A stretch of DNA of 61,560 nt, counting the filler, from Hausera hauseri (lineage: Eukaryota), in NCBI GenBank assembly GCA_046269625.1. It is 11 parts of 11 records of this genome, joined end to end, with 100 filler letters (N's around TTAATTAATTAA, not from the genome) between each part and the next. Parts side by side here need not be neighbours in the genome. Positions count along the whole stretch, not along the records: positions 16,960 to 22,936 come from JBJURY010159089.1; positions 23,037 to 31,020 come from JBJURY010837636.1; 9 more parts are not named here. One strand, 5' to 3'. The position numbers were made by a program, and so were the translations under genes. The notes under the pieces were generated by a model that saw nothing but the letters and a program-made list of their open reading frames with translations, was not told where the DNA came from and did no database searches. Shown piece after piece: positions 3,001-45,303 of this stretch (its first letter is position 1; each line of letters opens with the position of its first letter).

Positions 3001-3898
3001 ATTTTTGGAGGACGATACGCGACTCCTAAGAGAATGTTTTCAGTTCCGACTCGTACGTCTAAGAACAGAAACTCAGGATGGCCATAGATTTGAGGTGATC
3101 TAAAGATAATTTTAGTGACGAGGTCCTCGCGAACGAATATTCCAACGCCACCTCCTCTGCGATTTTGGCATCTGTCATGACGGAAAAAGTTGAAACCTGG
3201 TATATTTACAAGAGAGGAATTAAGCGATTCTGAAAGCCAAGTTTCTGTAACAAATGCTGCCGTACAATTTGTATTGGAAACAATATTAGAAAATTCATCA
3301 AAGTGGCTCAAAAGTGATTGGACATTAATGTGAATGCAATTAAAGCCAGAGTGGAATTTTTGGAAGGTGACATTTAGATAAGTTCTAGCATCAGTCATAT
3401 TCGGAGTGAGTGGGTCATCAGTCACGGACATATCTAGAACTGTGCTAGTATCACCTACGGGGAGCAGGTCAGGGTCATAGTGGATAGAATCATTATCCAT
3501 AATCCAGGGTAACGTTTGTACTCATAGAGGGGGTTCGGCAACAATCTGACGCGGTGCATAATGCAGAGAATGAAATAAATAAATGGGAATAATAGACGGG
3601 CAGTGAGAATAGATAAGAGGACAAGAAGAGAAGAGATGAAAGGATGAGTGAAAAATTAAACAAGTGTGAAAAGAAAATTAAAAGATTTGTAGGTATATGT
3701 AGGTCCATAGTTCTGCGTCGGTACGCGTGTCCCAGAAAGTATCTTCAGTTGATAATGTGAGTACATGGATTTTTCCGGCCTGGCTTTGTTCTAGTGGTAT
3801 ATCTTTCTTTCGAGGTGGTGTACAGTCAGCGATAGTGGTTGTTGAGAGGTCTTATATTGTAGTGAGATCGAGTGGAGAGTATCTTAAAGATGATAGGT
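1..3898 (-). mobile_element. 5'-truncated LINE including 3' UTR (purine/pyrimidine-skewed tract ~430-536, terminal stem-loop and AATAAA)
   Basis: ORF2 plus 3' end reading GGTTAAGCGTAATAGAGGGCCATTTGAGCCATAGCTTCGCC...AATAAAG on the minus strand; 5' boundary set by the PP1 exon 2 start. Confidence 0.75.
537..3500 (-). CDS. Non-LTR retrotransposon ORF2 (APE endonuclease + reverse transcriptase), L2/Kiri/CR1-group, intact 987 aa
   Basis: APE motifs HINVQSL, VTETWL, YRPP, MGDFN, LDLM, SHHDL; RT motifs YRPISLL, QSGF, LDFSKAFD, GVPQGSVLGPLLF, LFADD, KNLG; uninterrupted ORF. Confidence 0.95.
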   Translation of the reverse strand: MDNDSIHYDPDLLPVGDTSTVLDMSVTDDPLTPNMTDARTYLNVTFQKFHSGFNCIHINVQSLLSHFDEFSNIVSNTNCTAAFVTETWLSESLNSSLVNIPGFNFFRHDRCQNRRGGGVGIFVREDLVTKIIFRSPQIYGHPEFLFLDVRVGTENILLGVAYRPPKIGFLSDIEDELSSLLPNFKHSILMGDFNENLNGINNSPLVNIVTSLGLHILPLQPTHHTTTSHTLLDLMIVSDPTLIMEHGQTPVPGISHHDLIYLSFQIKMPKHKSRLVSFRDFKHFNEMTFLEDAVKVPWNNVVSIKSISEKVEFFTNSIVTLYDKHAPVKTLKSKRPPAPWLSEEIKILMKKRDTAYRKHKKYPESIDHFNYYKTVRNKVKLMIRNAKVRHTYSLFSDNNPKSIWKNIKELGLGKNKSYDLKPCVPLNDLNKSFASHTDSGNYNDTYIYSPPSTATLDDSTKFDFSLISEDDVLEALSKCKSNSKGYDNIPISFIRNPDFLRLIMPSLLHIFNFSLQNGTFPTLWKTSVVKPLPKVSKPSCAADYRPISLLSAISKILEKIIHKQVLSFLRNNNLLDNLQSGFKQGHSTSSALIKVTDDIREAVDSRKLTVLTLLDFSKAFDSVRHTNLLHIMHCLNFSTKAIQWFQAYLSDRKQFVACSSEKSNTLTVPHGVPQGSVLGPLLFTLYIHYLPSVLTNTKYHLFADDFQIYCHCEPSDLPRAINEMNHDLHNIQNWAKLHQLIINPKKSQVIIIGSPRFLQNIDYDNIPKLILDNTPLPWSKKVKNLGIIINEKLTWSDQTVATSCKVYRALHSLKRLNIYLPTGIRKLLIQSLIFPLFDYCDVNLTDISQEQSNRLNKALNACVRFIFGLRRHEHISPFYERLSWLRADQRRKVHLLLMLFNIFQTNSPGYLREKFDFIENRQTRSEFTLRIPHHRSSVYNRSFTVSSCRVWNSLPLETRRLESKGAFKRHTLELVRNGFQIDLQGSL

Positions 3899-9200: not shown

Positions 9201-9546
9201 TGGTGTAAAAGTTCCGTCCTTTTTGTACATGTAAATGTGACGACCAAGGAGATTTGGGACGGCGTAAAATGTCGGAGCGTCCTAGTTCAAGAAATTCGGC
9301 TTTTACGGCGTGAATACGACGAGGTGACAGTGGTCATACCTTTTGGCTTATTGGTTGTTGATGCTGTATAATTATATGATGTACAGTGATGTTTTCAGGG
9401 TTAAACGTACGATCTTTTTTGAGTATTTGTTGACATCATATGTTGACAAATTACTGTAAAGTTGTAGGCAATTGTGAGAGATTTGGTGATGATTGTGAAA
9501 TAATTTGAGTAGTAGCGGATGCAATTTATGAATTGTTTGCTTATGT
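6236..9546 (-). mobile_element. Degenerate CsRn1-like Gypsy, pol half (RT, RNase H, integrase, S/T/P-rich tail, PPT, terminal structured block)
   Basis: CGDYRQLN, IDLAQAYHQIPV, FGLRNAAQT, TTDAS, YSTFDRELLA, NLVADFLSR, HIDIVGPLP, YHPQSNG, LGPY; many stops and frameshifts. Confidence 0.92.
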
Positions 9547-12500
9547 NNNNNNNNNNNNNNNNNNNNNNNNNNNNNNNNNNNNNNNNNNNNTTAATTAATT
9601 AANNNNNNNNNNNNNNNNNNNNNNNNNNNNNNNNNNNNNNNNNNNNACTTTTTGAATGATATCTTTCGTTGGTATATCTAATAAAATATGACATTTGTAG
9701 TTTCAGAGTGAAAACAGAAATTTTAAATAATGCCATCAAAAGCAAAAAACATACATAACAACGAGAATAGATTTATTCTTTTAACTGCCAAAAATCGTTA
9801 TTCATTATATTCATATATACGATCAACTATGAATATTTTTTTACATCTGATTGACAATTATGACTTCTTGATATCCTGAATATTCCTTGGTTGTGCATTC
9901 TTTGAGATGTAATAAGTGCAGGAAATTCGAAGGGTTCATGTACCCGTGATTTTTGAAACATCATTTCCGAATATCTTCTTGAAATCTAATTGTGATAACG
10001 TTTTGGATGAGAAATCTTGAAAATAAATATTAAACAAGATTGTATAATACATGTATATAGAGTATGAGGGTTTCTTTCATAAAATATACTTTTTTCCACC
10101 TTCGTTTGGCGATTAGAATGGTCTATGACAATGCAGGAAAGCTTTTGAAACAAGACTTGAAGATTTGGAGCGAAGGTATGTCATGGAAATGTCATAAGCC
10201 TTCGAGTGTTTGAATGCATCTGCTTCTTGATCACTCAGTTACTTATTTGATAAGATTTATTTGACCTTTGTCTTCAGTATTTTAATGTTGCGTCCGAATA
10301 CAAAGAAATCGTTCTTTTGGAAATTGGGTCATTGTGTAAAATGTCGAATAGAGATCTATAAATCTGGATTGTTGTAGTCCGGGTCTAATATTCTGGCACG
10401 ATGAGATAAAAGCGACAAAAGCGTATCAACTCTGTTGGCAAATACAAAACAAATAAAAACAAATGAGAAAACAGTAATAGTGTATTTACAGGTCGTTTAC
10501 GACTTTTTGTTGGGCACAACATCACCCGCCCCTCCCCGTGACAAAGCGACGACTAGAGAGGTAAGAACGTAGAAAATGTGTGAAAACGGTGTAGGCTGTC
10601 TAAGTGGCCTTTGTGTGAATAAGACGTTGTATTCCTGGAGTATTATTCTCCTTACTGTAAGTACTAAATGTGACAAATTTGCGATTTTTCAGTGTCATTG
10701 AATCTGGTTGATGAGTTTATGGAGGTAATAAAATGTCGGATGTCGTGGTATAAGGTGTTGTGTCGTTGAAGGACGAAGAAGGAGCTTGAGAAGGAGATGC
10801 AGGAGAAAAAGAATGACAAGTTTTAAAGTTAAGAGAAGGGGGTTTAAGAGTAGGGTCTGGTAAAAGAGTAGGAATAGGTATCGGAACAAAAGGCGGTGCA
10901 GGAGTTGTAGGAACTGCAAGGGGAAAAGGCGGAGGAGACAGAAAGGAGGTAGAAGATTCAAATTCGGGGGTATCGTCTACGAAAAAGACAGGTTTGGCGT
11001 TGGTGATATGCACCGAGAGTTCCTTACCGTCTTTAAAAATAATGGCATCGTGGGAGTGTAATTGGACAAGTTTGTAAGGTCCCAAATACCGCGGTTGAAA
11101 ACCGCACGGCATTTAATTTTTTAGCCAAACGAATTTTGCTGAATACAAGTCTTCAGGTAAATATGTTTTGTCTTTGTGAAGTAACCTGCAGAACGAGTCT
11201 TTACTGATCGTGACAATGTGATTTTGCGCTGCCCGTATAGTTTCATCTGTAGGGGTGTCGTCAAGGGCAGTAAGTTCGAATAATAATTGTACAGGAGCAC
11301 CGAATAAGGCTTAAGTGGGTGAATAGCCGGTAGAAGTAGACGGAGTGATCCGCCAGCCAAGCAGAACAAATGGAAGAAGATTCGTTCAACTAGTGCTTTA
11401 CTCGGCAAGGATTCGTAGTGGCGTTTTCAATATTCAGTGGAAACGTTGTAAAAGGTCATTCGGTTGGGGGTGATAAGGAGTAGTATGTGTGTGCTGGATC
11501 CCCAATCGGTTAACAAGGGATTTGAACAGGTTGGATTCAAACTGTGAACCCTGGTCCGTCATGATAAAGTAAGGTGATCCAAGCCTGATAATCCATGTAC
11601 GAATGAAAATGTCAGCTACGGTGTCGGTATTTGTGCTCCGCAGAGGGATGGCTTCTGGCCATTACGATCCATCATATTGAGAATGAATTTGTGACTGTTA
11701 TCTGGAAGAAGAGAGCCGACGATATCAGTATGCATGGATTCGAAACGCGATGTGCATGGAAAGTGGAATAGTGGTGGCTTTAAATGTTTAGTTGTTTTGT
11801 AATTTTGGCAGGCCACACACTCCTTAACTCAGGTTTGCACGTCGGAACGCATTGACGGCCGAACTACTTGTCGGTGGAGTAAATGAAAAGTGGCTTTAGC
11901 GCCAGGGTAGTGTAGCGAATGTACGCTATTTAATGCTTGCCTTTGCAATGATGATGCAAAAATTATTACGGAATGACCTGGTTTGGAAGTGTCTAAAGCC
12001 ACGCCGTCAACAATTGTGCAAGATTTAAAAGAATGAAGCATGTCCTGAGGTGGCTGGTTCTGTTGAAGTTGTACTTGAGTGAAGATTGGTAAAAAATGAA
12101 TCGAACCAACCGTCCTAGATAAGAAATCGGCAACCAAATTATTAACCCCGTTAATATGTTTTATGTCAAAGTTGAATGTCGATAAATATGATATCTGTCA
12201 TTCTTGGCGTGAGGAAGGATGTTTCATAGCTATGGGTTTAAGCAAGGGTTTGTGATCGGTTTGTATGGTAAAATGATGAGCGACAAGTAGATGGGAGAAA
12301 TGCTTTAAAGCGAGAACGAAGGCCAATAATTCTTGATCAAACGTTGAATATTTAGTTTCAGGAGATGTTAGCTTACGAGCGAAAAATTCTAGCGGGTGAT
12401 TTCCTCCCTTGTGAATTTAGTGAAGCACAGCACTGTCCGTAGTGGTTGAAGCGTCTGTAGTAAGGATGAGTTCCGCATCAGGCTTAGGAAAAGCGAGAAT

Positions 12501-14121
12501 GTCGACGGTTTTAATTCCTTCGCGTAGCTTATCAAACTTATCAACCATTTCGGGTATCCACTGGATTGGCTTATGTTTTTAGCCGCCGCTTAAATGAGCA
12601 AATGGTGGGGTAAGTTCAGAGCAGTACAGCACATACTTGTGAACGAAGTGCAAAGTTCCCAAAAAGCTTCCCATTTCTGTTGTTGTTCGAGATAGTTGCA
12701 CGTTTCAGGGCTTCAGCTCGATCGGGCTGAGGCGAGTGACCTTCAGCAGAAATAATGTGCCCAAAGAAATTTATACGCTTCTGGAATAAGTGACATTTGG
12801 CGAAATTGATCTGCATGTTATGCTGGTGTAAACGTTGAAAGATTGATCTGAGGTGTTCCTCGTGTTGTTAATTCGAAGAGGAAACAACTAATGTGTCATC
12901 GATATAGGGATGAGCATATAGAAAATCAGAAAGGATATCATCGATGTGGCGTTGAAAAGTCTGTGCAGCATTCCGCAGGCCAAAAGGCATATTAACATAT
13001 TCGTAAAGGTCAAAAGGAGTAATGATGGCTGTTTTTTCGATATCCTCGGGCGCCATAGGAATTTGATGGTAGGCTTTGGATAAATCAATGATAGAATAAA
13101 TTGTAGTGGAATTGAGACGGTGTAAGATATTCTTAATGATTGGCAGCAGGTATGCATCCATTATGGTCAAAGTGTTCAACTGACGATAATCACCACATGG
13201 TCTAAAAGTTCCACCCTTCGAAGTCTACAAATTCGGCTTCAACTTCCTGCCTACGAGGAGGAGACAATGGGCGCACTTTCTGGCGGATAGGTCTCTGATG
13301 CTGTGTTATAATGTGGTGAAAAGTGGTATTTGCTGGTGTAAAAGACCTGTCTTTTTGAATTATTCTAAAACAAGATATGCTAATGAATTGCTGCAGACTT
13401 GCAGGTAGTTGTGAAAAATTGGTGGAAGCGAGGTGGTTTTATCGGTAACTGTTGTAATATGGACGTTATTTGGTGATCGAAAATGAAGAGGTATTCGATG
13501 TAGGACGGTAGTAATAAAAATGGTATTGTAGGAGGTAGTTTTATCTAATGATTTTGCAGGGATAACGGAATTACTGTCATCGTTGTGAAAATCCCAGTCA
13601 TCACTAATATTGTTCTTCAGTCATTTATAAAACAAATTACCATGATTGTAAGAAAAAGGTTTGTTCAACGGTTTTTTAATATCGGCATTCGAGTAGCATT
13701 CACCCGTACGACAGCCGAAATGGTTTCGGCATGATCGATTCGCTCCTTATTGCAACCACTTGTTAAGCAACGTTGTTTGCAATCGACAAGGAGATTATAG
13801 TGTGAAAGAAAGTCGGATCCTAAAATGGCTGTCTGAACATTTGCAACGGTAAATTCCCAGTGAAACATTGAAGTAAATGTCGGAAGGGTAAAAGAAAGCC
13901 TACAAGTACCGGAAACATGTAGCGGTTGTCCGGAAGCTGTAAAGAGAGGTTTATAGTTGGATAAAGTGTGTTGAATTGGAAAAGTGAGCTGCAGTAAGGA
14001 AATCACTGCACCTGATTTGACGAGGAAATCTATGTGGCGGGATGTTGGTAACGTAGTTACTGCTTTTACTGTAAATGCAGGGGAGAAAATTTTTGGCTGT
14101 TAGAAACTGAAGAATGGCCTT

Positions 14122-14164
14122 CGCCAGAACTTGCCTTAAGCTCTGGCGGCGCAATTAGTTTTTT
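14122..14164 (-). promoter_or_regulatory. gag-pol -1 ribosomal frameshift signal (A AAA AAC + stem-loop)
   Basis: CCA AAA AAC TAA at gag end followed by an 11-bp stem CGCCAGAGCTT/AAGTTCTGGCG; equivalents at 28226-28267 and 48061-48102. Confidence 0.8.
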
Positions 14165-15246
14165 GGCAGTGGTGAACTTGGGCGGCTGTTAGAAGATGAG
14201 ACAGTACGTCCGACATTCGTATGCTGTGTGCTATTTCTAAAGGTACAACCAGGAATACACTTATGCGCCTCATTCTTAAATTTTGCGTGGTACATGCAAA
14301 TAGGGTCGTTAACTCGATACTTCTGTGTGTAAAATCGGCACCCAAGATGACATTTTTGTGCTTTATGAGCAAACCTATCATGGTAGAAACAGATCAGCGA
14401 TCGTGCAGGAGAAGGTGACCTACCTCTGGGTACAGAGCGTGTGCGATCGGAGGCGAAACTCTTTCGTTGAGACAAAGAGATTTCATTTAATCTATCATTG
14501 ATATCGTTTATTGTATTATGTAGGGCTGCGTTTTCGGCCCGCAACTGTTGTATTTGATATTCTGGTGTGTTATCGTTTGCTGTACATGATGCGGAAATTA
14601 TATTTTGGATGTTCAAATATAATATCTCATACGTTTTGTCCGCAAGTTCGATTAACTTACCCAGTGCCGTCAATTCCTCGACGACGGTAAGCAGGGCTCT
14701 GATCTTGATCGGTAGTGCGTTTAGAAAGTAACGTCGTAAGAGGTCAAAATTATTTTGTTTGGTAACTCCGAGTGCTTACAGTTGCACGAGAGAAATTCTG
14801 AGAAAATCGGACGGTTTTTTCGTACCCATAGCATTATCAATGAAGAATCTATGGATTACGGAATCCATAGACGGCTCCATGAGTTTTAAAACAGCACTGT
14901 GAAGATGGGTGTACGGGTTGAATTGTTGAAATGTCTAAATATCGTGAAGGAAAGTTTTTACTGTGTTTGATAAGAGGCAAAGTAAACTATGAGCTTTAGC
15001 AGATGGATCGGTAATGTTGTTAGACTGTAGCCAGAGTTTGTGAAAGTTAAGCCAGATTTTGCTGGACATTTCGTCATTAATAAAGTATTCTGCGCACTGA
15101 GAAGTGTGTTTGGATGGCGGGATGGAAGGTGTATAAGTGGTGAAAGTAGATGGCGTGGTTACGGTCATTGATTTTTGGTGAAAAGTAAAAGGTGATGGTT
15201 TAGAGGTAGTTTTGTCAGTACTGTCAATGGTGGGCGAAGGTTCCAT

Positions 15247-15465: not shown

Positions 15466-18400
15466 CGGTGTTGACCCTAGTGGTGACGCAACGGACCGAA
15501 GCGTAGCTCTCACTGACATTGGACAACCGGTTGGGCAGTCGGTTATGCTGTGATGTACTCGGAACTCAACAGCTTTGTTTTGCGTACTGTGGAGGATCTT
15601 TGACTACAAATCGGTATAATCTTTATCACATTTATGGGTCGGAACTATGTCAAATTTAGTTAAATATATATTTATTCTCATAAGGTGAGGAATAGCCATA
15701 AGGCCTGCTGTCTTTATGTCATATTCTTTTAAATCATGTCTGATGAGCTGTAATGTAGCAGCGAAGTATTCAGCGATTATTATATTACTTTTGCATGTAA
15801 CTTGCAACATGGCAGACACGGTCTCGGTAATGAACGATAAGTCAGCAAATCTGCCCGACGTGAATGGGCAGTATCTTCAGAAATCAGATGGTTATCAATA
15901 TTGGGGAACCGTAGACGTTTTAAAGTATCCGAAGTATCGAAGTAACTGGGCCTGAAGTGACAACAGCAACTGGGAGCAATGATTAAAAGGGGTGATGTTG
16001 TGTCAACAGCAGACATGTTATGAATAAAAACATGGGAAAAATAAGGAATAGGAATCGTTAACAAAAGGCAAAATAAAAAATGTTAGCCAGACAAATGGTA
16101 CACAATGATAAATCTGCCCCCATCGTTTATCAGTTTCACTGACGAGTATAGAGTGGAATTGTCCATAAATCCCACCAGATTGAATGCTGTTACTTCCGTC
16201 TGTTTCACTGTTGGTGTACTTCCAGAAACAGAAATAGGATAGTTCATATTGACGCAACTTATTTGTTGAGGAATCGCCACAGTCGAAATGATGAGAGTTA
16301 TTATCGATCTTGCATTCTGATTTTTGTACAACTGCTGGAATTTCAAGGAGCATAAAATCAGATGTCTCAGTGTACATGTTATCTGAGTCATTATCATTCT
16401 CAAATTTGTTATCGTTGTCACCCGATTCGCCTTCATTCAAATTATGCGTCGGTCCTGTACTCTCGAATGATCGAATATCAAACTAATTTACTGTTCCAGT
16501 CGGACAAAATTTGTTAACAAGGTTTTTCTTAGTTTGAGTCATCTAAAACGACTGATTTAGCAGCGAATTGCTCAAAAAGGCCGGAATTAAACATTCGGGA
16601 TATGTTTCCTCAATTTCCGATTTCTGTTTCCATTGCCGTCGTCAGCTTTGTTTTGTTGTAAAATTTTCGATCGTATATTTATTATTTTGATCATTGTTGA
16701 CGGCTGCAGCTGCTATGGATTTTTTGGCTTGAGATACACGAGTAGAACGAGCCCGAAAGCCGCCGATTCCCAAATTCGAAAACCGTCTATTTCGCGGAAT
16801 TGTACCTTTGCCGGAGCCGCCTTTGACAGCAGGAGCAGTTGTCGCAATATTTTTGGTTANNNNNNNNNNNNNNNNNNNNNNNNNNNNNNNNNNNNNNNNN
16901 NNNTTAATTAATTAANNNNNNNNNNNNNNNNNNNNNNNNNNNNNNNNNNNNNNNNNNNNACGACCTGAAGAGGCATCGCCCGAAGTGCTATCAAAATGGA
17001 AGCACGAATTAGAATCATGGATTAAAAGTGGAGTCGAATATTCGGAAGGATGGAGCAGAAATGAAGATAACGTCGACACAAAAGTCGCTAAGGCTCAAAC
17101 GCTATTGTCTACCTGAAGAGAGTAGTACGTAACCTGAAACGTATGATGGATGAAATTCGCTGCGCAATGATTAATCGGCTTAGAGAAAAACCGGTTAGTG
17201 ATCGAAGCAATGTCAATTTACAAGTATTGGGTATAGCGCAGTAGATATCCCTCCCTTAATGGAGATGATAAAAATCGTGTTCGCCATACCTAGGCACTAT
17301 ACAAACTTAGAAAACCAAATTCAAATAGAAAATGAAACGCGAACACAGATTTATAGTTTGAAAAACCGAATTATGTCCCCAAAACACGAGGAGACCCAAT
17401 ACGTAGTAAAGGCTTGTATCATAGAGTTGGACGAGTATAAGGACGAGTTTAGTTATGTCGGCCGGATTATGAATTTTCTAAGAGGGCCGGATGATGAGTT
17501 AAAGATTATTATAATTATCGCGAATCAATTGTCGGAGTGGTCCGAATTAGTAACGCGACTAAGCAAATTGGTGGAAGACCGAAAAAAAAAGAATTTCCGC
17601 AAAGCGAGCCAATGGCAAAGAAGCAACTAGAAGAAAGTTCACATGATTTAGGCACGATGCGACTAGAAATAGACATTCGTACTCAATTCGAAGCGTTGCG
17701 ACGGCTAAAATTTATGAAAAGGGAACAAGAAGCGTCGATATCGGAGGAGATCTACAAACTGATCAAAGAGATGAACTTTACCGAAAAGCAGAATATGATT
17801 TACGACGTAAACTCAAGGTTAAGGATTGTTCGACTAGAAGGAGTCCAGTACTTAACGCGACAACTTATCGACAAAATCTTTGCCGAAGATATCGAAATCT
17901 TAGATATTTGCCCAGAACATCGAGATACGTTAACAGAGGCAATAAAATTCTTGCATAACTAACAAGAATGGATAATCGGATCAGATCAGAATTTCCATAC
18001 CAAGTTGACAAAAATAAGAGACGACGCACATTTTAGTTTTCAAGAACACAAGTTCGTAAAGAAATTGCCGGATGCAATAGATCTTGATTCAAAGGTTATA
18101 AATGAGAAATGGCGAAGATCAGTGATGACAGGATGAGGCAATTGATGCCAATGATACTGAAAGTGGAAGAAACATGTATTAAAACAAAACAAAGAGCGAC
18201 AAGGTTGGACGAACTAACGAAAGAGCTCGAAGTCTATCGAAACAAATATGCTTTTACTGAATCAGAGATCAAGAATTAACGAGAATTTGTACAGAGATGG
18301 CAAAGAGATGTAGTTATAGAATTAACAGATTACCACCAAAAAGGAATCACCGATCCTAATGAATTAGGCGAGCTATTGAAATGGATTCAGTATGCCTGTA

Positions 18401-18827
18401 AAAACAGCAAAGTTTCCGAACTACGAAGATGAAAGAAATACAACCAAGATTGAAGGAAATTAGAGAAAATGTACAGATAGCAAAGACAGTTTTGATAAAC
18501 CATGGACTTCCTGAAGCTGGAAATGAACCTGAATGGGATGCATATTTCGACGCAATACTTGCCGAAAAGCCCATGACTCCAGTACAATTAAACGAGATAG
18601 AAACATGCCCGCAGGACAGGAGATTCAATGTGGAGATACTCCTGGATTCAGCGCTAACTGAAAAAGACTTAATTGAACTAATTAACGTAAATATTACAGA
18701 AAATATTTTAAGACAACTTATTCCGATCTTAACTAAATTATCTAGCGATAACACGATTTATAGCACGGTGCAGAAACTTTTAATAAGGAAGTATGCTAAA
18801 ATTTTGAGGGCTAAACCTGAAACGGCG

Positions 18828-19050
18828 ATAAAAGTGATGGTATCATCCGAATGGATGGACAAAAAAGAATGCGAATTAACTACACATTCCTATGTGAGAG
18901 ACTTGAGAGAATGGCTGGCGAAAAACGGCGGAACAAACGAGTTAAACTACAGATTTTATTTTAGAGGTAGAATACTCGACGACCTAGAACAACTAATAGA
19001 TGTCGGGATTATTTCGGACGAAACGAATCGGATAGTGGTAGTAATAGCTA
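18828..19050 (+). other. Internal ubiquitin-like domain (no terminal GG)
   Basis: IKVMV...VRDLREWLA...YRFYFRGRILDDLEQLIDVGI resembles ubiquitin [21 protein letters not shown]. Confidence 0.65.
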
Positions 19051-19700
19051 ACGAACAAACAAAAGAAGAAGCTACACGTAAAGCCAAAACAGAGCAATGC
19101 GTAGGACAAATTAAGGGAGTCCGAGACGCCGCAATGTATTTTGAGTACTTACAAACGGATGAGGGTAAGGAACGATATGACATAAATTTAGTACCACTGA
19201 GCGAAATAACAACAAAAGGGCCGAGGCCGAAACGGCACGTAGGTAGGCCCAAGAAGTGGACTATAATGGAGAATTTATTAGACAATTGAGACAGATGTCG
19301 ATTCCGATTCTTAGTAGAGACAACGAAAAATTAAGCGAGTTAATAAAGAATTTACTACGAATTGTAAATTATTCCAGTCTTCGAGGTGACGTATTAGACG
19401 ATAAAGAAAAGAAAAAGTAACTTGGCCGATAAATCGGTAATCGAAAAGATCATGGTAGAAAACACCAACGAGGAGTTGAGAAAAGTGTTATTATATTTAG
19501 CTATCAAAATAAACCCTAACCGAGAGAGTGAAATCAATAGAGCTATAAGCTTAGCACGAAAAGCAGCAAGACGAATGCCTTGCGAAGTAAATTTGGCAAG
19601 ACTGTTTGACAAGGAAGAAGACAGACGGACCAGTAATAGACTCGACGATATATTACACAATTTAACAACGACGGGTGTTGGCCACCGGAAAAATGAGTCA

Positions 19701-21525
19701 TATTGGCTAATTAGCCTGATCACCTTAATGATTCTAATAAAACACATAGTTGCAGTTACCTTCTATGATTGCGATAAGTTCAAGTTAGGACAGAGATATT
19801 CCCTAATGGATCTGGAAGTATGCAAAGATGGTAGACCACACAAGTTGGAAACAAGAGAGAAAAATTACTTCCTCTACCAACAACAAGTATTGATATCGTT
19901 AGATGGAATGGAATGCATGCTGAGACGATCGCGTAGCATATCTCACTGTGGGCTAGTACATGAATATTCCTCCATATTCAAGCCAACTACTCCACTAATT
20001 CCGATCAATTTCGAACGCCAGCACTGCAAACAAGCCAAAGAAACTGGAAGGATACAATGGGACAGTATGCAATTAGAGATGCAGCCAGGAAAAATAATTA
20101 GAGCATACAAGGTAGTGGCTGGAGAATTGGATATGCATAGTGGAAATTGCAATGGAACAGAATACGACACCGGAAAGGGATTGGAGGCAAACGTAGTGGT
20201 TGTGTATTTATACGAATCAGAAATGTGATCACAGAAGGTAAAGTTCCATAGTGTTACCAAACTGTATACAGAGAATCAAAAATGTCATTTACAAGATGGG
20301 ACCTGTACTTTTAGAAGTTCGGTTATAATATGGGAACCTCCCTCTGGAAGAAATTGTAATTTCATTAAAATTAAAGAACTAAAGTTCAATGAGACTACAG
20401 GAAAGCGATATGTGGACAAATCAGAAACTAACTCGAGGACACGCAAGGACGTATCAGAACACTCCACACCCACCATATTAATTTCGGATCAGCATGGATT
20501 GAAATTTATAAAAAAGGAGATGATGTCGTGCTGTGATGTAGTGATGTTTGCTACGAACTATGAAGCGCTTTTTGTCGCAGAAACGGAGATAAGTGCGAAA
20601 ACTTATAAGCTAAAAACACAGGATTTCCGCATAGAAGATTACCTGAAGAATAGAGAAGATTACTTTTACTACAAATGACCAGTTGGAATAACGGAATTAT
20701 ATCATAAAATTATAAAGAATGACTGCAAATTGGATACAGAAATCATTAGAACTAAAATGGCTTTGATATATGCAATCCCAGAGTTGGCTTTACCAATAAT
20801 TCCCATGAGAGAAGGAATTTTTGGTCGGGTAACAAGCGAAGTATAGCTAACTTATGAATGTGAAAACAGAGACGTACCCATCAACGTGGAAGAAAAACGT
20901 TGCATTCAGGAACTTCCTGTGATTTACCAGAATATTCCGAGATTAGCTATGCCATTGAGAAAAGTGTTGTTGGATAATGCTACCCAACCAACCATCCTTA
21001 AAAATTGTAAGGCAAGCTTAGGAGAACCTATGTTTAGACTTAGCGAGACAGATTGGGTCAGCTTGCTAAATGGAGGTATCATTGCCGCTCCAAATAAATT
21101 GACAGGAACAAATCTCGCAAAAGGAATTACAGACGATAAATTTCAAGACTCCTCATCAAAAGGTATATACAGGCCAAAGGAAATTGATGCTTTTAGACAA
21201 TTCCTTGCCTTTCCACGACAACAAACACATGAGCTAAATTGAGCTATGGCTTCTGTAGTAGATGATACACGATACCAGGCTAAATGGGAATCGTTACTCG
21301 GTGTAAACCACTATCAACGAGTAACAACCGAAATACTTTACAAAATGTGGGGAAGATTTCTGATATTTGGACAAGCTGCATCCGGATTCTTAGCGATATA
21401 TTTTCTGATACAGATGATTAAAGCAGTCATCCAAGCAGTAATAAATGACTATAAAATATTTACATTGACTGGATTTTCATGTAAGGTATTGACTGCAATC
21501 ATAACGCCCTTTGGAAAATTCTTAA
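19701..21525 (+). pseudogene. Chuvirus-like (Jingchuvirales G-type) envelope glycoprotein
   Basis: Signal-like YWLISLITLMILI, then FYDC, YSLMDLEVC, HCG, CNG, ATNYEALFV, SEV*LTYEC, CIQELPV, and TM WGRFLIFGQAASGFLAIYFLI; in-frame stops. Confidence 0.8.
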
Positions 21526-24265
21526 AGGCATACGAAAAAAATAAATGGAAAACGGACGTAGAACGCCATGTCGGATATTATCATAGTAAACGGAAAAGAA
21601 AACCCACGTTCTTGTATAAGCGGAAATTCATCAAGCATTGTACACGAAGGAATAATTCAGATGATGACGAGCCTAAGGGAGGAGAAGCGCTTTCAGGAAT
21701 AAATAGACATAAGATGTACTCTGTTGTTAAAGCGTCATTACCAATGTTACCTCCTACTGCTCCATTCTATGATGATTGTGACAAACACTCAATGAGTTCA
21801 TATCAGACGGAAATCTATAAACGAACAATTAATGTAGACGATCCTTATAAAGTAACGAAACGTTACGGAATCCTACGAAAAATGTGTTACCGACAATCCA
21901 CAGATGGTTCCAAGATGTTGTATTCTCCGAGAGAACCTTGAAACATAGAAACTAGATCAACGGTTTGGGATAATCCAAGGTTAAAAACTTTCCAGAATAC
22001 TGAATTACACACTAATAATCGAGAACCATTAACTAATACACACAAAGCGGAAGAGTTGCACATAAAAAATAATGAATTATATCCAAACGAAGAACTAAGA
22101 CATCTATCGGAGAATATAGTATCCTCCCCAGAAATCCGAAACAATGGACATAAAATATCAGCGACTAAACATCCAAAAGTAGCAGCAAATTGTTTCGGGA
22201 CAGTGATAGAAGGAAGACCCTTCGCAAAAATTACTATCGAAGACTGGAAAGTTTATGTATTAATTGATACGGATTCCGAGATGTCTTACATCAAAAATGA
22301 TTCCATACCTCAAAGGCTGAGGGGACATTTATATCCACCGTCTACGAAAGATCCAGGAAGTACAGGAGCTTTTGTTCAAATGTCGAAACCGATGTTTAAA
22401 TGGAACCCAGAAGTCCAAATAGTTGGGCAAACATTGTATCATGAATTCGCAATCATGGAACAATTAACTGATGACGTCGTTCTAGGATGTGATCTATTAA
22501 AAAGGCTACCGAATATAGCAATTGACTTACAAACAGGAAAACTAATCGAGATCAGACCAAATAAAGGCATAAAAAACGATAAATATAGAAAATTTGGACA
22601 AGTAAGTATACCAGTCGAAGAAACATTCCACCAAGAACAGAGATAATAATCTATGCTCAAGTTCAACAAGATGATGAGCAACCAGTGTATTTCGAACTAA
22701 AGGAAACTTTAAATCCGAATATAACACTTAGTAACATACTGAGAAGAGTACGCTCCGATCGTGTACCGATCAGAATAGCAAATAACGCACCGACTTCCGC
22801 CAAGCTTCATGCTTATGCTACTTTAGGAAATGCGTATACAGTGTCGTCGATACCTCTCAAAGAGAAACATTATAAATATGCTGAATTTTCACTTTATGTC
22901 GAAACTAAGTTTTCACCTGAGTCTTATTGTCGATTCNNNNNNNNNNNNNNNNNNNNNNNNNNNNNNNNNNNNNNNNNNNNTTAATTAATTAANNNNNNNN
23001 NNNNNNNNNNNNNNNNNNNNNNNNNNNNNNNNNNNNTCAAGCACGCTTCGGATTGGCTGCATGGGGGCCGGGGGCCCGGGGGGGGGTGGCGCAGGATCGG
23101 CATTTTTCCCCTACTACACACACAAACCAATACATGCCTGTATGTCTAAAAAATGTAACATTTAAAAAAACTAAGTTCTGAACGAGCGTTAACACTATTG
23201 AACCAGAGTAACCCGAAACGTCGCAGCACCGGAAAAATACACTTTACATAGTTGGATGAATAAAATTCTAAACTATAAAAATATGTAATCTTTTCAACTT
23301 CCAACAAATTTTAACAAACCAAAAAGCAATTGAGTATTGAAAAAGTCAACCTAAAATAATTTCGAAGGTAATCTGAAATACAAGCTAACAAAATATATAA
23401 AAAATTTCAGATGCTCCAAAATAATTAGATTTGGAAATCTCAAGAATAAACTGATTTCAAAACTTTATTGTAACGCGGCGAAGCATTAAAAATAATACTC
23501 TCAAGTGCTGATGGTTGAACATCGGGTGAAGCCGAATTTCTAATTCCGTTTGGAAGCAATCTGGCAGATGATGTTCGGAATAAACGTTTTTTGTATTCAA
23601 TATGCTGCTTCAAGAATCCGATATTTGCATAAATTTCCCATCCACAGATTTAATGAAATATTTTCGAAAATCTTCACCACGAACCAACATTGACAACTTT
23701 GAACAACTTTTCATGAGATTGTACGTCATAAAAGGCACAATTAATCTGGATAAGTTAGTTACTCTGAATGTGGCAAACGATGAATGACCGTGTCCGATTT
23801 TTAAATCGCAATTGACATCTGGTAGTAATTGGTATTGTGGTATACTCTGCACTGCAGCTACATCGGAAGGTGTATTCTATAAGTTTTTTGACTGATTTTC
23901 TTGGCAAGATTTAGAGGGATTCTTATTGTGCAGAAGAGACGCTTTGTAAATATAGCAACTGTTCCAGGAAAATGTCACTGCATCAAGTGGCAAAATTTGA
24001 GACGAATAATGGATCACATCTGCTTTCTCTGTATACTCATATAACAATACCTGACTCTGTAGAAATGCTGTATGTGTATTTAGAGACGATTTTACCAAAG
24101 GAGATTCATGCAAATAGTGACGACCGGACAACCGTGCCAATTTCACTGTATCCAAATTTGACGCATTACTGCTTTGATTTGGATCATACGGTTTTGTGGC
24201 CAGTTTGGACATCTTTTGCTGATGATAAAACTCGGTATTGTAGGAGCGTCTTGTTGATGGGCCAA

Positions 24266-27200
24266 CCAATTCAGCGGGTGAAATTCTCGAATCGGAAGAT
24301 CGGGCCCGACTATGGACCCGACGTGGCCTAAACGGGCACACGGCCGCGCCAAATCAAAATGGGCCAAAGTGCACCGGCCGCCGTGGGCACCACATCACTC
24401 CCTGTGGCAAAGTTAAAACTATAAAAGCAAAATAGACATAAACAAAATCGCAAAAAGAAAAAAATGTGTGTATCAACTGGTATTATTGTGAGCAAGACGT
24501 TGGGTGCCCTATACTGATTTTTCCTGCTATACATGCTAAATGTGACTCTGCGTGTTTTGTCTGTATGCGACGTGTTTGCTTGCGGAGTTTGAAGTTGGAA
24601 AGAAAGAAGGGCAGATTTTTTTATGGGCGTTGTGTCGTAAAAAGACAAGTCAGAATGAAGAGAAGAAGAAAGTGAAGGAGAGAGAGATTGTTGGGGACGG
24701 ATGGTTGAAGGTATTCAAGAGAGTGTTAGAAGACAAAGGACTGATAAACGGTGTAGTGGCAGATGAAGGAAGAGAGACGAAAATTGGAGTAAAAATTGGA
24801 ATTGTATTAAGCGGAAGAGTAGAAGTAGGAAATGAAACAAAGGTAGTGGTAGAGAAAGAAAGAGAGATAGGAATAGAAGTAGAAAGTGGAGAAAAGGATA
24901 AAGCAGAACTAGGAGCAGAAGCACGAGGTGGAACAGGTGTAGCAACAGATATAGGAACAGCAGGAAGTGTATGAGTGAGAAAAGGGGTTGACGTGACAAT
25001 TGGTGAAGTGTCGTCAACAAAGAAGGCGTGCTTTAAGTTGGTAATATGCACTGTAAATTCTTTGCCGTCTTTAGAAACAATAGAGTTGTGCGAATGCTGC
25101 AGTACCAGTTTATAGGGCCCCAGATACCGCGGATGAAAACCGCACGGCGTTTGAATTTTTAGCCATACGAATTTTGCCGAAAACAAGTCTTCGGGTAAAT
25201 ATGTTTTATTTTTGTGAAGTAACCTGCAGGACAAATCTTTGCTGACCGTGACGAAGTGATCTTGTGCCTCGCGTATCGTTTCATCTGTAGGAGTGTTGAT
25301 CAGGGCAGTTAGCTCGAACAATGATCGTACGGAAGCTCCAATTAAGGCTTCGGTAGGTGACCATCCCGTAGAAGTAGACGGAGTGTTCCGCCAGCCAAAC
25401 AGAACAAACGGAAGAAGATTCGTCCTACTAGTGTTGGACTCTGCGAGGATTCTTAGTGACGTTTTCAATGTTCGGCGGAAACGTTCTAGGAAGCCATTGA
25501 ATTGGGGATGATAAGGCGTAGTATGTATGTGATGGATCCCCAATCGGTTAACAAAAAATTTAAACAGGTTGTATTCAAACTGTAGACCCGGGTCCGTGAT
25601 GATAAAGCGAGGTGATCCAAACCTGCTAATCTATGTGCGAATGAAAACGTCAGCTATGGTGTCGGTATTTGTGCTCCGCAAAGGGATGGCTTCTGGCCAT
25701 CGCGAGGAACTGTCCATCATGGTGAAAATGAATTGATAACCGTTGTCTGGAGGAAGAGGGCCGACGATGTCAATATGCACGGATTCGAAACGAGATGTGC
25801 AGGGAAAGTAAAGTAGTGGTGGCTTTAGATGCTTAGTTGTTTTGTATTTTTGGAAAGCCACGAACTCCTTAACCCATGTCTGCACATCGGAACGCACAGA
25901 CGGCCAAACTACTTGTTGATGGAGTAAACGAAAAGCGGCTTTAGCACAAGGTGGTGTAACGAATGTACACTGTTGAAATCTTGCCTTTGCAACGGTGGTG
26001 CGAGAATTATTACGGAATGACCTGGTTTGGATGTGTTAAAAGCCACGCCGTCAACAACTGTGCAAGACTTGAAAGAATTAAGCATGTTCTGAGATGGCTG
26101 GTTCTGTTGAAGTTAAGCTTGCGTAAAAATCGGCGAAAAATTCATCGAACTAACCGACCTAGATAAAAAATCGGCAACCAAATTATTAACCCCATTGATA
26201 TATTTTATGTCGAAGTTGAATGTCGACAAATATGATGTCTGTCGTTCTTGGTGAGTGGAAGGATGTTTCATAGCCATGATGTTAAGTAAGGGTTTGTAAT
26301 TGGTCTGTATGGTAAAATGGCAAGCGACAAGTAGGTGGGAGAAATGCTTTAAAGCGAGAACGATGGATAGTAATTCTCGATCAAACGTTGAATATGTAGT
26401 TTCAGGAGATGTTAGCTTACGAGAGAAAAATTCTAGCGGTTGATTTTCTCCTTTGTGGATTTGATGAAGCACAGCACCAACAGCAGTGGTTGAAGCGTCT
26501 GTAGTAAGGATGAGTTCCGCGTCAGGCTTGGGGAAAGAGAAAATATCGACGGTCTTAATTCATTCGCGTAGCTAATCAAACTTATAAGCCAATTCAGGTG
26601 TCCGCTGAATTAGCTGGTGTTTTTTGCCGCCGCTTAAGCGTGCAAATGGTGCTTTCAGTTCAAAATATTATCGTACATATTCCTGTACAAAATATAGTGT
26701 ACCAAGGAAGCTGCATATTTCAGTGGTCGTACGTGGTAACTGGATATTCTTAAGGGCTTCAACTGGATCTGGTTGAGGAGAGTGGCCGTCTGGCGAAATA
26801 ACGTAGCCTAAAACGTTGATGCGCTTTTTGAAGAAATGACATTTGTCGAAACTGATTTGTAAATTGTGGTGATTAAGGCGTTGGACTATTGCGCGGAGAT
26901 GTTCCTCGTGTTGTTTGGCTGAAGACGAAACGACCAGAATATCATCAATGTAAGGGTGTGCAAACGGGAGATCTGAGAGAATTGAATCAATATGTTGCCA
27001 AAAAGTTTGTGCAGCATTTCGCAAACCGAATGGCATAAACAGGTATTCGTAGAGACCAAAAGGAGTATTGACAGCATTCTTTTCTATGTTGTCAAGTACC
27101 ACCGGTATTTGGTGATATGCTTTGGCTAAATCGATGGTCGAGTAAATTACGGTTGAATTGAGACTATGCACGATATCCTTGATGAGTGGCAGGGGATACG

Positions 27201-29640
27201 CATCCATAATTGTCAAGTTGTTCAACTGTCGGTAGTCACCAAATGGTCTAAAAGCGCCGTCCTTCTTTGTACAACATGTAAAAGTGATGATCAATGAGAT
27301 TTGAAACGGCGTACAATGCCGGAGCGTTCTAGTTCGAAAAATTCGGCTTCTACGGCCTGTCTACGACAAGGTGACAATGGTCGCACCTTTTGACGTATTG
27401 GTAGTTGATGCTGTGTAATTATGTAATGTACAGTGCTGTTTGTAGAGGTAAACTAACGATCTTTTTTAAGTACCCGTGGACATGATGTGGTAACAAATTG
27501 CTGTAATGTTGTAGGCAACTGTGATAGATTCGATGATGATCGTGAAACAGTTTGAGTAGTATTGGATACTATTTGTAAATTGTTTTGAGATGTGCAGTCA
27601 AGTGGTAAGATGGTCGAATTGAAAATGGCGTTGGATGAAGTGATTTCGTCAAGTGAATGAACATTGGTGACAGTACCACAATTATCGTCATTGAACCTCG
27701 ATCGAATATCGATATTATTATATAAAATTTAAGAATTGAATTATTGTTATAAAAATTCGAATTATTTATTGATTTGCCTACAATTAACCTCCGCATTCCG
27801 GTCGACTGCGCGGTAGTCGAAATGCTATTGACATGGCCAGAAATGTCACCAGTGGTGCCGTTCCTTAAACATTGTTGACTGCAGTCAACCAATAAATTAT
27901 AATGTGATAGAAAATAGGTCCCTAGAATTGTCATCTGGACGTTAGCAACTGCGAATGTCCAGTGGAAAGGTGAAGGGAATTTTGGTAAGATGAAAGATAG
28001 TTTAACCATGCCAAAAAAGTGCAGCGGTTGACGTGAAGCGGTGTATAAAGGTTTAATTCTGAATAGTAAATTTTGTACAGGGAAAGATTGTGGTAATAAG
28101 GAAATCGCTGCACCTGTATCAATGAGGAAATCAACGGATTGCGCTGTAGCAGCGGTGATTGCAGTCTTTAGAGTAAAGACAGCAAAAGAGGCGTGTCGGC
28201 ATTCATTAGGTGTAGCCGTGCCTTTGCCAGAGTTTGCCGTGACTTCTGGCGGAAAATTTAGTTTTTTTGGAAAGGTGAACTAGGACGACTATTAGAAAGA
28301 AAGGTAGCACGTCCGTCGTACGTATCAGTTTTGAAAGTGCAGCCTGGAATGTATTTACGGGCTTTATTTTTAACCTTTGCATGGTAAATATAAACAACGG
28401 TATCCGAAAAGAAGTTTTTATTATAAAATCTGCATCTTAGGCAGCATCTTTTGGCTTATGGTGACCGGTTTCTAGGTACAGAATGGGCGCGACCAGCGAC
28501 AAAATCCCTTCGGCGGGACAGCGAAAGTTCATTAAATTTATTATTAATATTGTTAATTGTTGCGTGTAGTGCAGTATTTTCGGCATGTAACTGATTTATC
28601 TGTTGTTCTATCGATGTGTTATTGCTTTAAATACCGTTTGCGGCAACTGCCACCTAAACGATTGGTCGGAGTTTAAGTGTAGAACGTCGTGTGTCTTGTC
28701 GGCTAATTCGGCCAATTTCTCAAGAGTGGTGGAGTCCTCCATCACGGTAAGGAGATCCAGAATTTGGATGGGTAACGCTTTGAGGAAGTAGTGGCGCAGT
28801 AGTTCTGGATTGTGTTCTTTAGTGACACTGAGAGTGTGTAGTTGTGCCAGAGAAGTACGTAAAAAGTCTGATGGTCGTTGTGCGCCTATAGCATTGTTAT
28901 GGTAGAAGCATTGTATGATAATCTCCATTGAGGATTCTGTGATCTTAAGAACAGAGTTGAAGAGTTGTGAATATGGATTAGGAAGTTCGAAGATTTCGAT
29001 GATGTTATGAATTCGTGTTTTGATATTGTTAGGGAGTAAGAAGAGGAGGTTGAGTGCTTTAGTTAATGAATCGGTAACGTTATTTGCTTGTAGCCACAGT
29101 TGGTGGAATTGCAGCCAAGTTTTGCTGGAGCCTTGGTTGTCAATAAAGAATTCAGTGCAGTGAGGGAAAGGAGAGGAAGAAATAGTAAGTGCAGGGTTAT
29201 TATTAGAAGTAGTAGTGGATTTTGGAGTAGTATGACGGGTTTTGGCGTCGTGGTGGTTTTATCCGTGGTGTCTATGGTTGGCGTTGAATTCATGCCACCA
29301 CTGATGCGCAAGTGTATGTGGTGGTGGGTATAAGTTGAAGAAGATTGTAGTGTTCCATCGACAGGTATTGTAGAGACGTTGTACGTGATGGAGAAGTCAG
29401 ATGAGTGAAAAGTGGAGATGGTGTTGTTGATATCTGTAGTGTTTATATGTGTTGATGCAGTTGTATAAATATGTATATTATTTAAAAAAGAAGAGAGAAA
29501 ATGGTGTGGATGTATAGCCAGGGGCGTGTCGTGGCGCGTTAGAAAACGGTGCCGTTCGACCCAATGGCATAGGGTGGGCGGCCGAGACTTCGACCCCGTC
29601 ATGGCGAATCTCAAACTTCGGGGTTACAGAGTTTCCCGCA
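24266..29640 (-). mobile_element. Degenerate CsRn1-like Gypsy, near full internal region with leader-Ubl
   Basis: HIHLRISGG|MNSTPTID (ATG 29293), Gag KLAELAD, FLIDTG protease, YIDD, RH, IN, S/T/P tail, PPT and terminal block. Confidence 0.92.
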
Positions 29641-29644
29641 GAAA

Positions 29645-30800
29645 TGGTAGGTTCAGGACGCGTATTATCGGACATGTATATTTGATGACTATTGGAATCG
29701 CATGCTTTCACAGGCAAGGTATAAATGTTCTCTTTGCCCGTTTCTAAAACCCAAACGTTCTCTCCCAGTGAAATATGAAATCACAAGTATCTCGGTTTAA
29801 CGACTAATAAAACGGACGACGGATGTCGGACTTCTTATGTGATATTTTTATCAATAAGTGTAACTTCAGTTTGGCCGTATTTTTTGCTGTAGCAGTTCAG
29901 CAATGAATATCAAGGGCTGTGATATGACTGTTGTTAACCTGGAGGGCATATTGACTGCTCGAAAGTTTTTATTTTATAAATGATCCTTGACTATGAACGT
30001 GTATTTTATACGATATGAGTGTTAGGAATCAAGTATGCGCATTGTGGCGATAAAGTAGCATTATCCATGACTAGAAGCCTAACATCTTGACTACGCACAG
30101 TACTTTTGACTTTTTCGTCGCGAAATATTAAAGAAACTCTAGCAGACACTGTTTTCGAGCCGCTGACTAACTGTGTATAACGTTTAAGTTCTTGTTGTTC
30201 CGTATTTCCAATCAACATTGGTGTTGAATATTCTGACTCAGTCCATGTTATAAATCCTAGAACACCTTGTGCATGGCTGCTTAAACTCGATGCATGTATA
30301 GACCATTCAAATAGCAAACCGTTCAACGTGGAGAACGTGTTACCGAATTTATCGGAAGGTCTGACGATAAGAGCTTTGGAAGTTTCATGTAAATATAACT
30401 CCTGTGTTCGGGTTTCAATCGGTAGGGGCTTAGTGACGTCATCAATAACGTTGCGGTGTACAATACGACCGGTAGCAGTTTTTGGCATTAATTGTAGCTG
30501 TTGCACGATGATTTGGTTGCCATAAAGAAGTAACAACAACCTCATTAGAACATTTTGCATCTGGATATAATGGTGTTATTGTTGCTACATCGGGAGTGTT
30601 TGAGGGCCATAGATGGCAAATGAAAAATGAGCCTCGTATCGTATAATATATGGGTTTAAAAGTACTTCTGCGTAAAAGAATCTTTGAATCATTTAACTTA
30701 AATTCAGTTCCTTTTATTACGTGTACATGTATGAAAAAACATGAGAATAAAATTTCAATAGGGCTCATGATAAAATTTATGAAATGAACGAAAATAGATG
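29645..30800 (-). pseudogene. NUP210: Intronless 5' fragment of nuclear pore glycoprotein gp210
   Basis: TQELYL...DKFGNTFSTLNGLLFEWSI and WVLETGKENIYTLPVKACDSNSHQIYMSDN match Nup210 ([44 protein letters not shown]); stops and frameshifts. Confidence 0.85.
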
Positions 30801-44185: not shown

Positions 44186-44448
44186 ACTAAAAAAATCATA
44201 CTAATACCACATATTTCCATATTACTTTACAACCGCAGTTCTTACTTATTTCTGGAATCTATCAAGTGTTATACTGAACCGGAATATTTAATAAACAGCA
44301 GCAATAACACGATGAATAAGAGGCTTTTTGGACAAGCACAATATCCGCTAAATCTTAACTCACATATTCCGAAAGAATTTCAAAGAATTATTCCGGGCTC
44401 TGTTCCAGATGGAACATCAAATCCCATTTATTGGTCAGATTCTTTAAA

Positions 44449-45179: not shown

Positions 45180-45303
45180 NNNNNNNNNNNNNNNNNNNNN
45201 NNNNNNNNNNNNNNNNNNNNNNNTTAATTAATTAANNNNNNNNNNNNNNNNNNNNNNNNNNNNNNNNNNNNNNNNNNNNATACATTATAAAACATCCAAC
45301 AAA

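Follow-up and report, generated by a model that had tools for sequence, protein, structure and literature searches.

A contig of about 6 kb from Hausera hauseri, at positions 16960-22936 (5977 bp) of the analyzed stretch, very likely derives from a Burro-like Ty3/gypsy element whose envelope is of the gB type, as a genomic copy that is now dead. The whole stretch (61,560 nucleotides from assembly GCA_046269625.1; hereafter the window) joins parts of 11 records, and this contig (+ strand), with N-spacers at both ends, is an internal fragment of one element on which no LTR, RT, or integrase was found. In one frame, a ubiquitin-like domain (UBL) is followed by an internal signal peptide, then by a class III (gB-fold) glycoprotein of the chuvirus type with its membrane anchor, and last by a retropepsin. 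An earlier note on this DNA had recognized these parts in a frame of about 1400 codons, and profiles, fold matches, and hydropathy agree with it.

The frame at 18429-22646 (+) comprises 1406 codons and 12 stops, 11 internal and the last one, whereas 500 shuffles had 103 on average and never fewer than 70. The description of this frame as broken only by stops is inexact at 19287-19397 (+), where 6 of the 11 internal stops are packed into 37 codons and the adjacent frame is stop-free. This segment looks like a stretch out of register; the piece in the adjacent frame showed no significant homology. The coding region also starts and ends elsewhere than at 18429 and 22646, the limits proposed earlier. 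Coding homology extends into another frame at 22622-22894 (E 5.6e-10 with the relatives' profile), and upstream lies a weak capsid-like match at 17289-17573. The region at 17574-18659 (+) is frame-broken and probably coding, with long stop-free pieces in changing frames and no match to the relatives. Because of the 11 internal stops, the out-of-register stretch, and the degenerate protease site, the copy is dead and can itself make none of the products proposed below. The frame is far more open than expected by chance, as could be expected of an element-derived gene domesticated by the host, but the same three defects and the thousands of diverged matching contigs make domestication very improbable.

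Those contigs come from two public runs, in which all 30 bins of the 6-kb contig are matched by many diverged contigs; the copy belongs to a large, diverged, multi-copy family. Related DNA loci were not found in viral contigs, GTDB genomes, or JGI metagenomes. RNA runs with a family match are not listed among the public runs, and no conclusion on expression is drawn from this.

A word-index homologue search with the glycoprotein region yielded nothing among 3294 candidates, and the full HMMER scan gave homologues. Of the 19 matches at E<=1e-30, 17 close relatives were scanned for domains. Single proteins of the relatives show the order Gag, accessory modules (helical-UBL and Bcl-2-like among them), signal peptide, class III glycoprotein, anchor, retropepsin(s), RT, RNase H, and integrase. 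A protease follows the glycoprotein in one protein in 11 of the 17 scanned relatives, and a run-on to RT-RNase H (Ty3/gypsy RT) was seen in 5 of the 17; in the remaining 6, the protein stops within the glycoprotein or shortly after it. RT or integrase precedes the glycoprotein in none of the 17. The stretch from glycoprotein through protease to integrase is also present in two more members of the cluster, 4844 and 3003 aa long, and the 4844-aa relative carries ankyrin repeats. Since env is followed by protease in single proteins of 11 relatives, 5 of them continuing to RT, the domain order is not due to chance. The earlier note had made its reading depend on glycoprotein and protease being linked in other copies. 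The 11 relatives show this linkage, and the note was right in reading an enveloped retroelement whose env lies in frame ahead of the protease.

As an alternative, the glycoprotein gene of a chuvirus might have landed by chance, and accidentally in frame, in a gypsy copy that was decaying. Chuvirus-type glycoprotein EVEs are reported often to adjoin fragmentary gypsy elements in arthropods (PMC10084718), and no single contig spanning the whole 6-kb stretch was found in the two public runs. Nevertheless, the env-protease order recurs in the relatives, the entire 6 kb is covered by the diverged multi-copy family, and in the tree the envelope falls among the protease-linked proteins and apart from the named chuvirus protein. 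The relatives' architecture and the envelope tree largely refute such an insertion, which is left with hardly any probability.

The RT of the relatives has Ty3 RT as its best PDB match (E 1e-82) and is 46-79% identical among them, and no BEL/Pao marker domains were found in the relatives. By this Ty3-like RT and the PR-RT-RH-IN order of the relatives, the element can be assigned to Ty3/gypsy (Metaviridae); the window's own RT lies off the contig. The earlier note had linked the element to Anakin, BEL/Pao elements of mosquitoes with a chuvirus-type glycoprotein (Dezordi et al. 2020, PMC7642597) and the best known chuvirus-G retroelement. The glycoprotein in the window belongs to the same Pfam family and likewise lies inside an LTR element, but the superfamily differs. 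The only DUF5641-bearing, BEL/Pao-type match found has its glycoprotein downstream, behind DUF5641, and falls in another envelope clade. An Anakin-type BEL/Pao element with a captured glycoprotein is refuted for the relatives by their RT and domains, and for the copy in the window, as judged through those relatives, its probability is close to nil.

The glycoprotein is preceded by an internal signal peptide or signal anchor at 19707-19763 (+) (hydropathy 2.28; model helix 101-115), and a matching hydrophobic stretch is present in most relatives. The ectodomain at 19755-21302 (+) contains four internal stops and matches PF24664 Monjiviricetes_fusion with E 3.4e-57 (profile 8-604 of 653). In fold searches with its model (pLDDT 79.9), the best matches were herpesvirus gB in PDB (E 7e-14, Z 9.9) and chu-like glycoproteins in BFVD (E 5e-39). 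The alignment used for the model included chuvirus-type proteins, and thus these fold matches cannot count as evidence separate from the Pfam match. A membrane-proximal helix and membrane anchor are placed at 21303-21540 (+) (model helices 636-714), and a second hydrophobic stretch lies in frame at 21357-21413. By PF24664, the predicted gB-like fold, the signal, and the anchor, the window glycoprotein is classified as a class III fusogen of the chuvirus/gB kind, as the earlier note had proposed. It shares family and fold with glycoprotein G of Chuviridae and Jingchuvirales (PF24664) and is 24% identical to the named Chuviridae glycoprotein (E 1.4e-26). The Chuviridae G differs in being a stand-alone protein with an N-terminal signal.

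The envelope tree was constructed with FastTree from 85 glycoproteins; P0018 and P0020 were left out as too short. All protease-linked glycoproteins, that of the window among them, form one clade (19 of the 85 rows, SH-like support 99), which excludes the named Chuviridae glycoprotein and the DUF5641-bearing protein. The window is on a long branch (1.64), and its envelope is only about 30% identical to the nearest relatives. Three short motifs, taken from Schmidtea mediterranea envelope rows in supplement 2 of PMC13524379, were found in 11, 14, and 5 of the 18 members of the clade, but in 0 of the 66 glycoproteins outside. Of four flatworm-type motifs tested, the window has only one, and this is the least specific, present in 15 of 18 clade members and in 14 of 66 glycoproteins outside. 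By eye, the bryozoan and nematode envelope rows in the same supplement differ from the clade.

On the N-terminal side, a Gag profile built from relatives only has its best match in the window at the capsid-like region 17289-17573 (+), with a weak E of 0.78 window-wide; the targeted score was reached by 1 of 1769 shuffles, for a segment picked after the fact. A zinc knuckle (CCHC) pattern was not found in the window; zf-CCHC or Gag matches occur in the relatives P0007, P0011, P0016, and P0018. A SIR2-like lead from the atlas search for 17202-17627 (0.85-0.87, under 0.9) was dropped for the capsid-like match. A three-helix region at 18660-18809 (+) (model helices 27-76) precedes the UBL. It is common to the relatives and lies inside their profile match; it received no fold assignment in searches with the helical-UBL model, which barely sampled it.

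The ubiquitin/SUMO-like domain at 18822-19052 (+) is without a C-terminal di-glycine. Its match to Pfam ubiquitin is below the cut-off (E 0.008), a profile built from relatives alone matches at 18690-19043 with E 8e-10, and its model fits ubiquitin/SUMO folds with Z 12.2 and rmsd 2.4 over 78 residues. By the profile match, the helical-UBL module is judged homologous between the window and the relatives. A scan of 19 relatives found it in 5, with leave-one-out E values from 1e-4 to 1e-21; P0112 is UBL-like by eye, had no match to the profile, and was therefore excluded from this count.

A weak remnant of a Bcl-2-like helical domain is placed at 19401-19556 (+) by the relatives' profile (E 1.1 window-wide). 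Its targeted score was reached by 3 of 1994 shuffles, and helical controls were not significant; the BH2-like motif of the relatives is absent from this segment in the alignment. The module occurs in 4 of 19 relatives (leave-one-out E 9e-6 to 2e-15), and all 60 PDB matches listed for P0005 are Bcl-xL/Bcl-2, the best with E 0.01. The Pfam Bcl-2 match of the relatives is under the cut-off (20.1 vs 31.4 bits), the profile search gave E 0.2 at best, and atlas searches, in which all leads stayed under 0.9, yielded nothing for the Bcl-2-like part of P0015. Taken together, the Bcl-2 identity of the relatives' module is suggestive.

The retropepsin at 22212-22526 (+) is recognized by the relatives' protease profile (E 1.4e-12), with a Pfam RVP match below the cut-off (E 0.011) and an active-site motif degenerate in this copy. 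The relatives have one or more retropepsin copies, 2 to 7 in some, and the literature search yielded no report of tandem proteases in elements of this kind. The segment at 22622-22894 (+, other frame) is a homologue of the relatives' protease-to-RT spacer domain, the counterpart of which is described as dUTPase-like in Burro (PMC6431247). A PDB search of 22589-22933 found no dUTPase match; two matches at E about 1 were judged chance.

Dugesiid planarians harbor the giant LTR retrotransposons of the Ty3/gypsy type known as Burro or GYPSM1 (Arkhipova and Yushenova 2019, PMC6431247); in planarians, smedwi-2 RNAi is reported to raise the level of BURRO1 RNA (PMC8532177). Burro elements are described in PMC6431247 with the order Gag, Ubi2/SUMO-like, BCL2, in-frame env, PR, dUTPase-like, and RT, an ORF of about 5000 aa, long LTRs, and a size over 30 kb, and decayed fragments with stops and frameshifts are reported from Dugesia japonica. 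By that description, the copy in the window resembles Burro in its env in frame between gag-side modules and protease, its Ubi2/SUMO-like domain upstream of env, and its spacer domain homologue behind the protease. It differs in a shorter part before env, about 900 codons on the contig, and in a degenerate Bcl-2-like part; the MATH, BIR, and ankyrin modules of Burro1 and a zinc knuckle were not seen on the contig. The Burro env was reported to match mononegavirus-type fusion proteins and was linked by HHpred to the gypsy Env/F type (PMC6431247), in contrast to the predicted class III gB fold in the window. Membership in Burro, which was compared by description, would thus rest on architecture and short motifs. 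The layout with env in mid-polyprotein is real but has been in print since 2019 (PMC6431247), and the novelty that the earlier note implied for env before pol does not hold. In the literature searched, only PMC6431247 describes the UBL-BCL2-env order; subscription papers were thinly covered, and a direct comparison may exist.

Chary and Hayashi (2026, PMC13524379) catalogued GAG-ENV-POL errantiviruses with HSV/gB-type ENV from Platyhelminthes, Nematoda, and Bryozoa. These errantiviruses share a Ty3/gypsy pol and a gB-type env between gag and pol with the element described here, and motifs of the protease-linked clade recur in their six S. mediterranea envelope rows. That catalogue is restricted to intact copies, its flatworm entries come from three species, and Burro, Bcl-2, and ubiquitin have 0 occurrences in its main text. 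In its POL tree, gag-env-pol elements are not monophyletic. This would be consistent with a gag-env-pol gypsy lineage of its own, like those of nematodes or bryozoans, with a Burro-like layout that is independent or the result of a very early split, as would the divergent, long-branched envelope of the window and the clade members P0008, P0011, and P0016, in which Gag leads directly to env without UBL or Bcl-2-like matches. Against it stand the homologous helical-UBL module and the clade motifs common to the S. mediterranea rows, together with the visual dissimilarity of the bryozoan and nematode rows. A separate lineage is accordingly considered unlikely, and a Burro-like element is preferred.

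Nematode non-canonical ERVs, set beside the window by description, have nematode hosts, unlike the element described here. Those of Sacco et al. 2022 reportedly have a continuous gag-env-pro-pol ORF, and they are not known to have a UBL/Bcl-2 module. As cited in PMC13524379, they resemble the copy in the window in having env before pol, an RNA-virus-like glycoprotein, and a metavirus RT. Troyka was rejected for comparison, as it is described as encoding no envelope (PMC12440569).

A flatworm is the probable host. Another contig of the window carries a remnant of NUP210, which shares 45-51% identity with orthologues from flatworms and 35% with those from lizards. In AU tests with references that included no planarian, placement with cestodes (p 0.115), with trematodes (p 0.114), or outside the sampled flatworms (p 0.29) was not rejected.

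From the anatomy of the element, and from what is generally known of how viral polyproteins are processed, the ancestor of this copy may have encoded one polyprotein threading the ER membrane twice. The internal signal would send the glycoprotein into the lumen and the anchor would stop transfer, so that the cytosol would hold Gag and the accessory modules at one end of the glycoprotein and Pol at the other end. The glycoprotein N-terminus would be freed by signal peptidase, leaving the upstream part attached to the signal peptide, and the element protease would release Gag, the accessory domains, and the Pol enzymes. Gag, Env, and Pol would thereby be tied to one membrane site for budding of enveloped particles. 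The Bcl-2-like domain would have a tail anchor, as the Bcl-2 proteins of cells do, and its most likely role would have been to dampen cell death. As the UBL is without a di-glycine, it is proposed to be an adaptor domain, not a conjugated tag. More tentatively, Burro may be a branch of a wider, old enveloped-gypsy clade beyond dugesiid planarians, in which the env signal peptide is the tail anchor of a Bcl-2 mimic regulating cell death, released with the UBL adaptor by the element's own protease; this copy would then mark a flatworm group not yet listed.

With this copy, a little-studied group gains a divergent family of high copy number, and this kind of envelope is placed in class III, not in the F type. 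The copy also joins two descriptions under different names, the UBL-Bcl2-env-PR polyprotein of Burro and the gB-type gag-env-pol errantiviruses of flatworms. The tail-anchored Bcl-2 mimic, if true, would give a retrotransposon a virus-like means of interfering with cell death.

The element copy was found on one of the eleven contigs in the window (16960-22936, 5977 bp). These contigs of 4-8 kb are joined only by spacers of N's that include a linker with stops in all frames; adjacency across the spacers is meaningless. The frame at 18429-22646 (+) comprises 1406 codons with 12 stops, against a mean of 103 in 500 shuffles, none of which had fewer than 70. Six of the 11 internal stops are clustered within 37 codons (19287-19397), where the neighbouring frame is open. 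Our reading is that the register is shifted here; homology was looked for in the neighbouring-frame piece and could not be shown. Homology continues at 22622-22894 in a different frame. The copy is dead. Its family is large and diverged: public run X1 includes 18,665 contigs on the 6-kb stretch, the majority less than 95% alike. All 30 bins of the stretch were covered in both public runs, in which no single contig spans the whole stretch, and depth there does not represent copy number.

The region 19704-21560, with stops read as X, matched the Monjiviricetes fusion glycoprotein PF24664 (E-value 3.4e-57, positions 8-604 of 653), with hydrophobic stretches on either side of the ectodomain (19707-19763 and 21357-21413). 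The AlphaFold model (74-row alignment, pLDDT 79.9) showed herpesvirus gB as the best PDB match (E-value 7e-14; Z 9.9, 430 residues, rmsd 9.0), and chu-like glycoproteins as the best match among predicted viral structures (E-value 5e-39); these fold matches are not independent of the Pfam match, because the model alignment included chuvirus-type rows. The protease was matched weakly by Pfam (E-value 0.011) and clearly by the profile of the relatives (E-value 1.4e-12). The single frame with UBL, glycoprotein and protease described in the earlier note is confirmed.

The full HMMER scan with the glycoprotein returned 583 matches, 19 of them at E-value ≤1e-30; the domain scan took 17 of these relatives, omitting two short fragments. 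A retropepsin follows the glycoprotein in the same protein in 11/17, five extend further into RT and RNase H, and six stop within or shortly after the glycoprotein. RT or integrase ahead of the glycoprotein was observed in none of the 17. Two cluster members (4844 and 3003 aa) extend to integrase, and Gag or zinc-knuckle matches precede the envelope in P0007, P0011, P0016 and P0018. The linkage to a protease and the chuviral similarity on which the earlier note had staked its reading therefore both held. Its enveloped retroelement was right in outline but not in lineage, as the nearest solved structure to the RT of relative P0009 is Ty3 RT (E-value 1e-82), and is not new.

In the glycoprotein tree (FastTree, 85 glycoproteins), one clade (SH-like 99) included all 14 protease-linked glycoproteins, three fragments and two Bcl-2-linked glycoproteins. 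The named Chuviridae glycoprotein and two proteins with the glycoprotein after integrase-side domains fall outside, and the window glycoprotein is long-branched.

Several further features of the relatives were recognized. Multiple retropepsin domains are present in P0003, P0004, P0006, P0007, P0010, P0011, P0152 and P0156, in many cases two to four after the envelope; P0152 has seven, two of them behind the integrase. The accessible part of the Burro description names just one protease (PMC6431247). Long C-terminal extensions after integrase, with more hydrophobic stretches, are seen in P0002, P0003, P0014, P0152 and P0156. P0002 (HBK71150.1) is a eukaryotic gypsy polyprotein that carries a hypothetical-protein annotation in a Flavobacteriaceae MAG, probably animal DNA inside a bacterial bin. 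Residues 110-290 of P0014, ahead of the envelope, resemble a DEDD-type exonuclease by eye; the Pfam scan gave no match there.

The UBL was matched weakly by Pfam (E-value 0.008); its model is a beta-grasp matching ubiquitin and SUMO (Z 12.2). A helical-plus-UBL module precedes the envelope in 5/19 relatives, and a profile from relatives only matched the window module at E-value 8e-10. Directly ahead of the signal peptide, 4/19 relatives have an extra domain. That of P0005 matched Pfam Bcl-2 below the cut-off (E-value 0.001); all 60 PDB matches listed were Bcl-xL or Bcl-2, over BH1-BH2 (best E-value 0.01), and the profile search gave the Bcl-2 family in 48 of 50 rows, all at E-value 0.2 or worse. 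The corresponding window segment is weak (E-value 1.1 window-wide, with one chance match ahead); tested alone, its score was reached by 3 of 1994 shuffles, and alignment with the relatives revealed no BH2-like motif in it. The capsid-like match found at 17289-17573 is weak too, and both lie at the positions predicted by the architecture. Between the UBL and the Bcl-2-like remnant is a GRPK motif (19242-19253), which may be AT-hook-like; similar motifs precede the envelope in 5/19 relatives.

The envelope-before-protease layout is not new. PMC13524379 records GAG-ENV-POL gypsy elements of gB type from flatworms as well as from nematodes and bryozoans; S. mediterranea contributes six, which reach as many as 215 copies. 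Its main text does not use the name Burro, and thus we can only infer that these six are Burro. Three motifs of its available S. mediterranea envelope rows occur in 11/18, 14/18 and 5/18 clade members and in 0/66 other glycoproteins; the window glycoprotein retains only a fourth, less specific one. There is good reason to believe that the element functions in the manner of Burro, and it most probably belongs to the Burro group as a divergent member.

The other contigs carry a LINE, a second gypsy family and a NUP210 remnant. The LINE ORF (537-3521, minus strand) is open, with 994 aa including endonuclease and RT. The second gypsy family is present as several decayed copies (6500-14800, 24600-29600 and 42000-48700), and its RT is only 33-36% identical to those of the Burro-like relatives. 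The NUP210 piece (29658-30753, minus strand; ~400 residues) is broken and apparently intron-less, adjoins a gypsy element within its contig, and may be a retrocopy. It shares 45-51% identity with 15 flatworm rows and 35% with three other rows, and groups with flatworms (support 97/97), in a reference set seeded with a tapeworm protein and including, by name, no planarian, mollusc or annelid. AU tests did not settle the group placement; the host is probably a flatworm, with no finer placement.

Of the working model, the order of the domains is established, as are the UBL and envelope folds. The single polyprotein would cross the ER membrane twice, signal peptidase would open the N-terminus of the envelope, and the element's own protease would release Gag, Pol and the accessory domains on the cytosolic side. 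The UBL, without a di-glycine, may serve as an adaptor. The signal peptide of the envelope would remain as the membrane anchor of the Bcl-2-like domain, similar to a tail-anchored Bcl-2 protein, and this domain would probably hold off cell death. We propose that, by this double crossing and cytosolic release, capsid, envelope and enzymes would collect at one membrane.
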